Part shown: positions 46,600 to 47,970 of the stretch, piece after piece | Layout of the letters: each line of letters starts with the position of its first letter | How positions within the stretch are numbered: the stretch's first letter is position 1 | Origin: Octopus vulgaris | Taxonomy: Eukaryota | Length of the DNA stretch: 64,000 bases | Reading direction: 5' to 3' | NCBI GenBank assembly: GCA_951406725.2 | Contig: OX597816.1 | Location: forward strand, 4,278,001-4,342,000 | Translations under genes and position numbers: made by a program | Notes under the pieces: generated by a model | Seen by the model: only the letters and a program-made list of their open reading frames with translations | Databases searched by the model: none | What the model was told of the DNA's origin: nothing

Positions 46600-47970
46600 A
46601 TGTGTAAGGAGTGATTTTGCAGCGAGGTGTGCAAGAACTTGGATGGTCTGATGATCAGACAACCAGACCAAGAATACACGTTTGCTGATAGTGCAAGCAC
46701 TACAGCACAGGAGGATTAAAACATAGTGGAAGAAAGCAGGTTCGAATCCACCTCATAGCGGACACAAAACATTAGCACGCATAGTTGAAAATCCCCATCA
46801 ATACCCTGAAGGAATAATTCATGATAACATGTACTCGAAATGTAGAGCAATACCACATGTTCTGTAACGTGGTGGTCTTGCAGGCTGAAACCGAGGTCAG
46901 AGTCGAAAAACAACAGTTTCGGCAGACGTACACGGGGCTTGGAAGTACAGTGTGTCGTAGAAGAGTTATCTTGGGTAACAAACACGACACCTCACGACAA
47001 GATAGACAAAGTTTGCTGATCTAAAATGAGGTTCAGGCGTTGACCGAGGACAGATGAGTCAACAGGATTGTTGGAATATGGCAGCAACTGCTTGGAAAGG
47101 ATCGGAGAAGGAAGTGAAGTGCAACTCCCATGATTTGAGCTATGGAAAACAGAGCGCTCTTGAGCAAGATTTTTAATTCAATCTCTCTTTACATTCTAAC
47201 AAGCCCTTCCAATTTTGCTCTGCTAGTAAAAGGTCAAGTTGTTAGCTTTTGTTCTGTGCCCAAGGATAAGGAACCTTGAACACTCGTCAGCAGCTTTCCA
47301 AAGACCCGTGAGAGGGAAACTGCGACTGGCGCCATGAACGAGTCCTGAAGGTCATAGCGGACACACAATCTGCAGTGCATTTGGCCATCGAAAGTGTCAC
47401 TGTCCAAGAACAAAAAAAAAGGACCATTGCTTTCATCAAGGTGACCAAGATGCTAACACTAGCTGCCAAGACCACGTCTCTTGGTTTACTAGTAACGGCA
47501 CAAGACTTAGAATGGAAAGTTGATCTGAAGAAGCAAGTGAAGTTGCAAGAAGCTGGAAACATAACTTCAGTTAAGTCAGGCAGGGTACTGACCTCAGTGA
47601 GGAGGCCACGGATGGAAGTGAACAAAGAGTACTGAATTGGGGAATATATACCAAAACAACGTGTGGTGAGCGAGGTGGGAGCACATTGAAGTTCGAATCT
47701 AGAGCTCAGTAGAACTCACAACATGCTTAAGAGTACAGAGTGAGAGCAGACGAAGAGCTGTAAAGAAAGCCAATGGTGTAGCAGATGATGCTTTCAAGTG
47801 ATGTAGATAAGGAATGGAAAGTTATGGCTGGGTAGTGCCATCTGGACACAAACCTGGGTTTGATCAACTTCACCTGGGTCGCCTAGTTAAGAGTGTCTGA
47901 GTGTTCGGGGTTGAAACACCTAATTATCTCCGGTAACATCACTGATGACGTGTCCAGCTTCGTCAGAGAA
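46600..47970 (+). mobile_element. Internally deleted, decayed HERO-like RLE non-LTR retrotransposon
   Basis: N-terminal zinc-finger relic CSEVCKNLDGLMIRQ (46618-46665); post-RT QAE...GLG; GNCDWRHERVLKVIADTI; IAFIK...GLLVTAQD...VDL; IEV; structured 3' UTR; RT domain absent. Clade call from recalled motifs. Confidence 0.7.
47842..47957 (+). ncRNA. Second candidate rewired hammerhead-like motif, in the 3' UTR of the HERO-like element
   Basis: gtgTC (47893-97) pairs with GAAAcac (47913-19); tga(g)tgtt (47898-905) pairs with aacatca directly before CTGATGA (47935-48); closed by ctggacac/gtgtccag. Confidence 0.5.

Follow-up and report, generated by a model that had tools for sequence, protein, structure and literature searches.

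Do the hammerhead-like pieces in the 3' UTR of a decayed retrotransposon belong to a genuine self-cleaving RNA, and if they do, what would a LINE do with a cut at that place? The pieces lie in the window, by which we mean the whole 64,000-nt stretch of Octopus vulgaris DNA that was analyzed, and the first-pass annotation had read them as a hammerhead core in the order B-C-A (S-G-C in the block names used below). What lies at 47842-47957, we find, is a degenerate copy of a motif that HERO-clade RLE LINEs conserve in their 3' UTRs. The window copy itself is a relic and probably inactive, and the evidence comes from its relatives.

Window copy, sister family, and host element

All the segments that had been claimed for 47842-47957 are present, on the forward strand. 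The 5' strand of helix X, CTGGACAC(A), is read at 47842..47850, and its partner, as covariation in relatives indicates, is the strand right after CUGAUGA. Hairpin P2 follows (47851..47875), decayed here and with a palindromic TGATCA loop at 47861-47866, and then the 5' strand of helix Y (47876..47880), which is the displaced stem II strand and whose first G replaces G10.1. A further helix, Z, which the annotation had not named, has its 5' strand at 47882..47886 and presumably corresponds to the helix through which stems I and II interact in type-SGC hammerheads (PMC10085705). Block S (47891..47905) consists of the stem III 5' strand, U16.1 (47896), C17 (47897), the predicted cut at 47897/47898, and the stem I 5' strand; it includes GTG-TC at 47893-47897 and, directly 3' of the predicted cut, TGAGTGTT at 47898-47905, and a truncation spike is found at the equivalent site in a sister family, family B. 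Block G (47906..47921) holds the stem II 3' strand, GAAA (47913-47916), and the stem III 3' strand, with CAC right after GAAA (47917-47919). The last stretch (47930..47957) contains the helix Z 3' strand (~47930-47933), the stem I 3' strand with AACATCA (47935-47941) directly 5' of CTGATGA, the CUGAUGA itself (47942-47948), and the helix X 3' strand with CGTGTCCAG (47949-47957) directly 3' of it. The rest of the 3' UTR of this family (family A), to the approximate insertion end, spans 47958..47988 on the same strand and is common to L003, L007, L009, L011, and L013.

Family A comprises 163 candidates in the host genome, which is 2.8 Gb in size and rich in microsatellites, and 13 other genomic copies match the motif region of the window at 69-84% identity. 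These copies bear out the suspected decay: in the better-kept ones, GGGTC (the equivalent of 47876-47880) pairs with a GACCC before GAAA, a strand that has decayed to CGGGGTT in the window. The alternative pairing aacct/gggtt that had been offered for this strand is thereby replaced, as its real partner is GGGTC at 47876-47880. The window copy folds weakly when taken alone (z -1.78), and the minimum-free-energy z-scores (-1.78, -0.98, and -2.32) are uninformative because the motif contains pseudoknots. Rfam models gave no hammerhead in the window, among 150 of 165 matches listed, and none in five intact loci.

Upstream of the motif, 46785..47599 on the forward strand retains degraded pieces of the C-terminal ORF region of a HERO-like RLE LINE, found by tblastn with the ORFs of L187, L182, L160, and L205 (E down to 7e-21); a search with the more distant family B protein missed them. 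Family B is young and much larger, with 2189 candidates, of which the 40 scored came out at 98-100%. A 5'-truncated copy stands in the same window at 10480..10644 (forward strand) and carries the same motif, with a predicted cut at 10524/10525, CUGAUGA at 10559-10565, and the element 3' end near 10644; the match of layout claimed for this second site, at ~10480-10570, thus holds. The family B locus L053 has an open frame of 1110 amino acids with a reverse transcriptase (RVT_1), a CCHC zinc knuckle, and a C-terminal RLE, the knuckle and RLE motifs having been read by eye. The best PDB matches of this protein are R2 proteins, to which the resemblance is distant, and its closest named protein relative is from octopus (79% over a short stretch); no relative was found among the viral contigs scanned. 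Compared by eye in a published alignment, the reverse transcriptases of L053 and L216 share long common motifs with HERO-1_BF and HERO-2_DR and are far closer to them than to R2. Judged from its protein sequences, the element is a HERO-like RLE LINE, in agreement with the first-pass annotation.

Several further observations concern these families and the window. The family B insert in the window is flanked by a direct duplication of 144 bp that takes in microsatellite sequence (10335-10478 and 10641-10784; four mismatches), a length out of the ordinary for target-site duplications. Internal deletions have independently produced many family B derivatives that retain the 5' region and the 3' UTR motif (L229, L232, L236, L238, L241, L242, L247, and L251) and are candidate nonautonomous mini-units. 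The cluster L056-L059 (C29) was considered as a HERO tandem and rejected, as it is a local duplication in which family B 3' fragments sit inside duplicated blocks with a ~278-bp satellite. L121, from a family A subfamily in the host genome, and the metagenome-contig element L160 share 89% identity over 340 nt, with compensatory changes in stem III; horizontal transfer between them is possible. Elsewhere in the window, a near-perfect, MITE-like inverted repeat of ~130 bp at 28820-28954 gave subthreshold plant miRNA matches, and a weak tblastn match to the RLE domain at 55516-55773 is possibly another decayed RLE element.

Conservation, core, and topology of the motif

An RLE-domain alignment was used to fetch 80 metagenome loci, 12 of which have <150 nt of downstream sequence. 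A descriptor of the S-G-C core fits 41/80 of them, and the full layout (X, hairpin P2, Y, Z, stem III, UH, stem I, linker, Y', GAAA, III', Z', I', CUGANGA, X') fits 36/80; with three genome copies added, the counts are 44/83 for the core and 38/83 for the layout, and a relaxed core descriptor picks up 8 further loci. The same descriptor fits 1/1660 shuffles, 0/83 reverse strands, and 0/80 coding stretches. In a tree of the RLE (54 rows), the motif is confined to a single clade of 47 rows with support of 100/96, and 42 of these carry it. Within that clade it is absent from a subclade of four, one of which (L217) has a doubtful partial match, and from L174, and it is also absent from the seven rows outside the clade. 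The weak fold of the window copy and the missing Rfam match might be taken to mean that hammerhead-like words fell into this arrangement by chance in a decayed repeat. We give this virtually no probability: it is refuted by the descriptor nulls (44/83 against 1/1660 shuffles) and by covariation in five of the five helices tested, and the motif maps to one supported clade. The motif is not due to chance, because there are 13 other genomic copies of it and the descriptor fits lie far above the nulls.

Some observations outside the motif were made in the same loci. Three elements outside the motif clade (L180:1610-1760, L196:1060-1210, and L203:1135-1285) have in common a different conserved, covarying 3' UTR structure, which includes a hairpin with a palindrome-like loop, has no Rfam match, and could be another ribozyme or a recognition fold. 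L213, an outgroup element without the hammerhead motif, has a weak type-P5 twister match just downstream of its RLE domain (L213:2147-2212; 22.5 bits, below the gathering score of 37.6; E 0.94). Among proteins P0087-P0206, many relatives lie on contigs of ~3.6-4.4 kb, near one unit length, as expected of collapsed tandem or circular repeats, which is a weak hint.

Since a sequence-only MAFFT alignment misaligned the variable helices, the core and helices were examined with anchored scripts. CUGANGA and GAAA were the search anchors and are hence imposed; the other core positions were unconstrained. Pairing alone was used to pick the site in 41 anchored sequences, seven near-duplicates having been left out, and in 39 of them it yielded one with at least 7/8 pairs. 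U16.1 is present in 37/39 sites, as is the G16.2-C15.2 pair. Position 17 is C in 15, U in 13, and A in 11, and never G, and all four bases occur at N7. L199 and L206 read UUGACAA, which is the U3-A8 core swap, and L147 and L148 read UUGAAGA. In hammerheads, C3-G8 is a core base pair for which U3-A8 is a natural, active swap (Perreault 2011, PMC3088659).

Each of the five helices tested pairs far better within than across sequences, although the sequences are related and the events are therefore not independent. The within/cross values are 0.96/0.51 for stem I and 0.92/0.69 for stem III, with several pair types per position in both, and 7.2/3.0 bp for helix X, 4.3/2.2 for helix Y, and 5.4/3.5 for helix Z. 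The first-pass annotation had proposed beforehand that the core and complementary stems I and III be sought in HERO-clade 3' UTRs, and both are kept there in B-C-A order with covariation; the helix that it had drawn as closing next to CUGAUGA is helix X.

The canonical stem II is absent: the strand after CUGANGA pairs with the strand before GAAA at a mean of 1.7 of 4 positions. Instead, the strand before GAAA pairs with the upstream strand Y, whose first base is G in 38/38 parses, opposite C in 33 and U in 5, a count that is partly forced by the conserved C. Strand Y restores the G10.1-C11.1 pair from a distance. Helices X, P2, and Y and the core join without an unpaired base in 36/38 parses, a figure that is biased by the descriptor and includes near-duplicates and three misparses. 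As the covariation shows, helices X, P2, and Y and the core form a four-way junction, with stem II rebuilt from upstream strand Y. The circularly permuted order of the Rfam type I, II, and III hammerheads is not found, and the order is S-G-C; the type-SGC order and its stem I-II interaction helix are both present, and the uninterrupted block C is absent, with helix X and hairpin P2 standing between its parts. The topology is thus that of a type-SGC ribozyme opened inside block C.

In 20 of 29 nonredundant hairpins, the loop of P2 has a central palindromic hexamer, compared with a shuffled mean of 4.7 and maximum of 13, and the palindromes take four sequences (TGATCA, TGGCCA, GACGTC, and AGTACT), which suggests selection for self-complementarity. 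The loop likely mediates RNA-RNA kissing, by which two transcripts would dimerize. Overall, we consider it very probable that the motif is a functional self-cleaving fold.

Genomic 5' ends and longer-than-unit copies

Occasional nicking of the RNA at the predicted site should make reverse transcription that comes from the 3' side run off there. The truncation spike was tested in family B only. The anchor lay 26 nt downstream of the site, and a position-blind filter passed truncations anywhere in a span of 36 positions. All 72 resulting rows were inspected, and 48 proved to be internal indels or deletions and 24 to be true 5' ends. Nine of the 24 begin exactly at the first base after GUC, and the other 15 are scattered over 12 positions with at most two at each (binomial p 9e-9). 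For L308, one of these nine, a reading as -3 is possible. A further copy, L083, starts at the cut site by local alignment, and L062 has a 17-bp target duplication ending at the cut site. A second filter (16 forward and 2 reverse rows), probably not exhaustive and drawn on for further examples only, contributed five more cut-site copies for a total of 14 clear cases. A clean target duplication is seen in only 1/14 of these (L062), and a T stands directly upstream in 12/14, compatible with an untemplated A that would be added at run-off. The genomic evidence from family B thus points to a break at the equivalent of 47897/47898. CpG decay was rejected as the cause of the spike, as no copy keeps C17 as its first base (no break at -1). 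Copies that stop at the cut site make up ~1-2% (2 among the 100 rows listed out of 1112) and ~98% read through, which fits mostly uncut RNA equally well.

Copies that end at the cut site were also sought: none occurs in 25 rows, many of which are chance matches, and the 5' cleavage product was rejected as a common template on this ground. In addition, family B has no fixed 5' end: 19 of the 20 copies that reach the start continue into the 3' UTR. The 30 best loci for the 5' UTR comprise 10 that are truncated within it, 1 that stops at the junction, and 19 that carry on upstream into the 3' UTR. In those 19, the extra upstream sequence has scattered starts, crossing the cut site in 14 and beginning there in none. 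In L080, the 3' UTR joins the 5' UTR and the ORF start directly, and in the tandem copies printed, the 3'-5' junction sequence is identical, with no inserted bases. Since copies pass from the 3' UTR into the 5' UTR and none of those examined has its end at the cut, the motif seems to act on head-to-tail or circular RNA, and the 3'-end processing suggested by the first-pass annotation would be more than simple trimming.

Six long loci each hold one dispersed insert that measures 1.03-1.26 units, and in three the cut sites are 3734-3738 nt apart. The two repeats of L315 differ from each other at 2/976 positions, compared with 11-13 differences from three other young copies, and have 10 common variants relative to L053. 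The repeats of L319, an older copy, have 14 common variants and differ at 22/885 positions, by count no closer to each other than to other copies. Among 83 family B 3' ends, the end point varies, with a mode 3 bases after the anchor, and the last few bases agree with the beginning of the next unit; internal priming would be expected to leave such ragged ends. In other HERO families, a head-to-tail join, with the N terminus encoded after the motif, is seen in 7/56 metagenome loci with enough downstream DNA; these are repeat assemblies and may be collapsed. In runs X1 and X2, which come from one study and whose RNA label is a guess, contigs close into a ~1.26-kb loop, an internally deleted unit joined 3' to 5', at a depth of 76-90, well above that of the deleted interior. 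The 3'-5' joint was not seen in runs X7 and X10, so that the loop is found in 2/4 runs. A tandem DNA array would give the same closed-loop contigs, and they are no proof of a circle. No array of at least two full units was found among the 8 long loci mapped or the 30 5'-UTR loci.

Could these patterns arise without catalysis? R2-type proteins bind structured 3' UTRs and jump templates, and the motif could accordingly be a hammerhead-derived tail for protein recognition or dimerization, with tandems left by template jumping and the spike by a pause of the reverse transcriptase; the absence of a canonical stem II and the read-through of the cut site in most copies would fit such a tail. We consider this improbable. 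A position 17 that is never G, a free N7, and the U3-A8 swap are signatures of a catalytic core, and together with the spike, which is precise to a single nucleotide and lies at a site predicted beforehand, they argue against a noncatalytic structure. Little structure should be left to pause the reverse transcriptase at the site, because all the 3' partner strands would already have been copied, and the identical tandem junctions without inserted bases also speak against this reading.

Alternatively, the ribozyme may be active and the template linear, as has been proposed for Penelope-like elements. Read-through RNA of tandem or partial-tandem copies would then be reverse transcribed from an internal start, and cleavage would only make a 5' end, for release from upstream RNA or for cap-independent translation, or limit the RNA. 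Such a scheme accounts for the spike, the head-to-tail joins, and internal initiation. Penelope-like elements have tandem structure, internal initiation, and a dispensable hammerhead, cleavage having been dispensable for insertion in vitro in a Penelope element with a similar layout (PMC11167929), and hammerhead cleavage can promote cap-independent translation (PMC13725137). However, if cleavage set the 5' ends, longer-than-unit copies should begin at the cut, and 0/19 do so while 14 cross it. The loci mapped, 8 long and 30 with the 5' UTR, also lack the arrays of at least two units, and upstream extensions could only shrink in a linear lineage. We therefore judge a linear template to be unlikely, although it carries appreciable weight. 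The cut-site spike and the absence of a fixed 5' end together are most simply accounted for by a circular template.

Proposed replication route and known systems

The reading that we lean toward, as rather probable, is that the HERO 3' UTR motif is a conserved, non-circularly permuted hammerhead fold that self-cleaves in vivo and converts transcripts of more than one unit into circular RNA of unit length, to be copied for more than one turn by the element's own reverse transcriptase. The cycle would start with transcription of a copy that has two motifs. By a cleavage chemistry presumed to be that of hammerheads, the RNA would be cut after NUH at each motif to release a ~3.73-kb unit, a step to which the genomic ends testify indirectly. 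Helices X, Y, Z, and III may then hold the ends of the unit, rebuilding the ribozyme across the junction, and either the ribozyme or a host ligase would seal it. Target-primed reverse transcription would begin inside this template, ~115-125 nt downstream of the cut, as the genomic copies bear out in part. Most cDNAs would cross the sealed site, ~1-2% would meet a nicked template and stop exactly there, and a few would pass one full turn and so regenerate a two-motif copy. By analogy, this route would be the retrozyme model (PMC7761336) applied to an autonomous LINE.

In its fullest form, the proposal is that HERO elements, in fish, lancelets, cnidarians, and molluscs alike, are autonomous LINEs with viroid-like replication: a new four-way-junction hammerhead permutation would cut and reseal a 3.7-kb protein-coding circular RNA, which would be translated without a cap, dimerize via its palindromic kissing loop, and enter the genome by rolling-circle target-primed reverse transcription. 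We regard this wider proposal as an even call. If true, an autonomous non-LTR retrotransposon would use a ribozyme-made circular template, which would link R2-type target-primed reverse transcription to the rolling-circle biology of retrozymes and viroids, and tandem HERO-type insertions could be explained. The pufferfish retrotransposon Zebulon reportedly has a tandem structure. Builders of R2-based gene insertion tools would also have an interest in an RLE reverse transcriptase able to initiate within a stable circular RNA. Full-text searches of a mainly open-access literature turned up no ribozyme or circular intermediate for HERO, no type-SGC hammerhead beyond those of Eckert 2023, and no circular template for an autonomous LINE.

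The closest relatives in structure are the type-SGC hammerheads (HRIMA-1 and a variant), which cleave in vitro and combine the S-G-C order with an extra helix joining stems I and II (Eckert 2023, PMC10085705). The HERO motif resembles them in this order, in its full core, in stems I and III that cross as pseudoknots, in a short linker between stems I and II, and in an extra helix linking the far sides of these stems, which in HERO is Z. In type-SGC ribozymes, however, stem II follows CUGANGA directly, whereas in HERO its strand has moved 5', and helix X, in a four-way junction with P2, comes next after CUGANGA. The authors of that report assumed that the block of CUGANGA and stem II cannot be interrupted, and they state that their ribozymes, which come from metatranscriptomes, are not in genomes of known organisms; the HERO motif sits in animal LINEs. 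The claim of a distinct system in the first-pass annotation thus stands for the split stem II, its four-way junction, and the host element, in which the novelty lies because the B-C-A order was already published as type-SGC. If the reading is right, the motif adds a hammerhead topology that the discoverers of non-circular permutations had ruled out by assumption, and it would also be the first of its kind from animal genomes, where it would mark a LINE lineage across the clade.

In mode of replication, HERO would resemble retrozymes (PMC7761336; bioRxiv 10.64898/2026.07.22.740005), whose longer-than-unit transcripts are cut by hammerheads, whose RNA is circular, and for which reverse transcription has been modeled to yield more than one unit. 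Retrozymes, both LTR and non-LTR, are small, noncoding, and nonautonomous and carry type I or III hammerheads, whereas HERO is an autonomous 3.7-kb element with a reverse transcriptase and RLE and a permuted hammerhead. The hammerheads in the pLTRs of Penelope-like elements are likewise found in a terminal repeat, in elements with tandem or partial-tandem copies, a start of reverse transcription inside the RNA, and a variable 3' tail (PMC11167929). Those elements differ in having a GIY-YIG endonuclease and a minimal type I hammerhead, and no read ends were found at the cut (PMC11167929); HERO has an RLE and a large motif with a four-way junction, and its genomic copies show a spike at the cut. 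Finally, R2, with its 5' HDV-like ribozyme (PMC7761336), and RTE, with its 5' twister, are also LINEs that encode a self-cleaving RNA, and the HERO protein is R2-like, with HERO cleavage being predicted. Their ribozymes cut at the 5' junction and define the 5' end, whereas the HERO motif sits in the 3' UTR of an element without a fixed 5' end.
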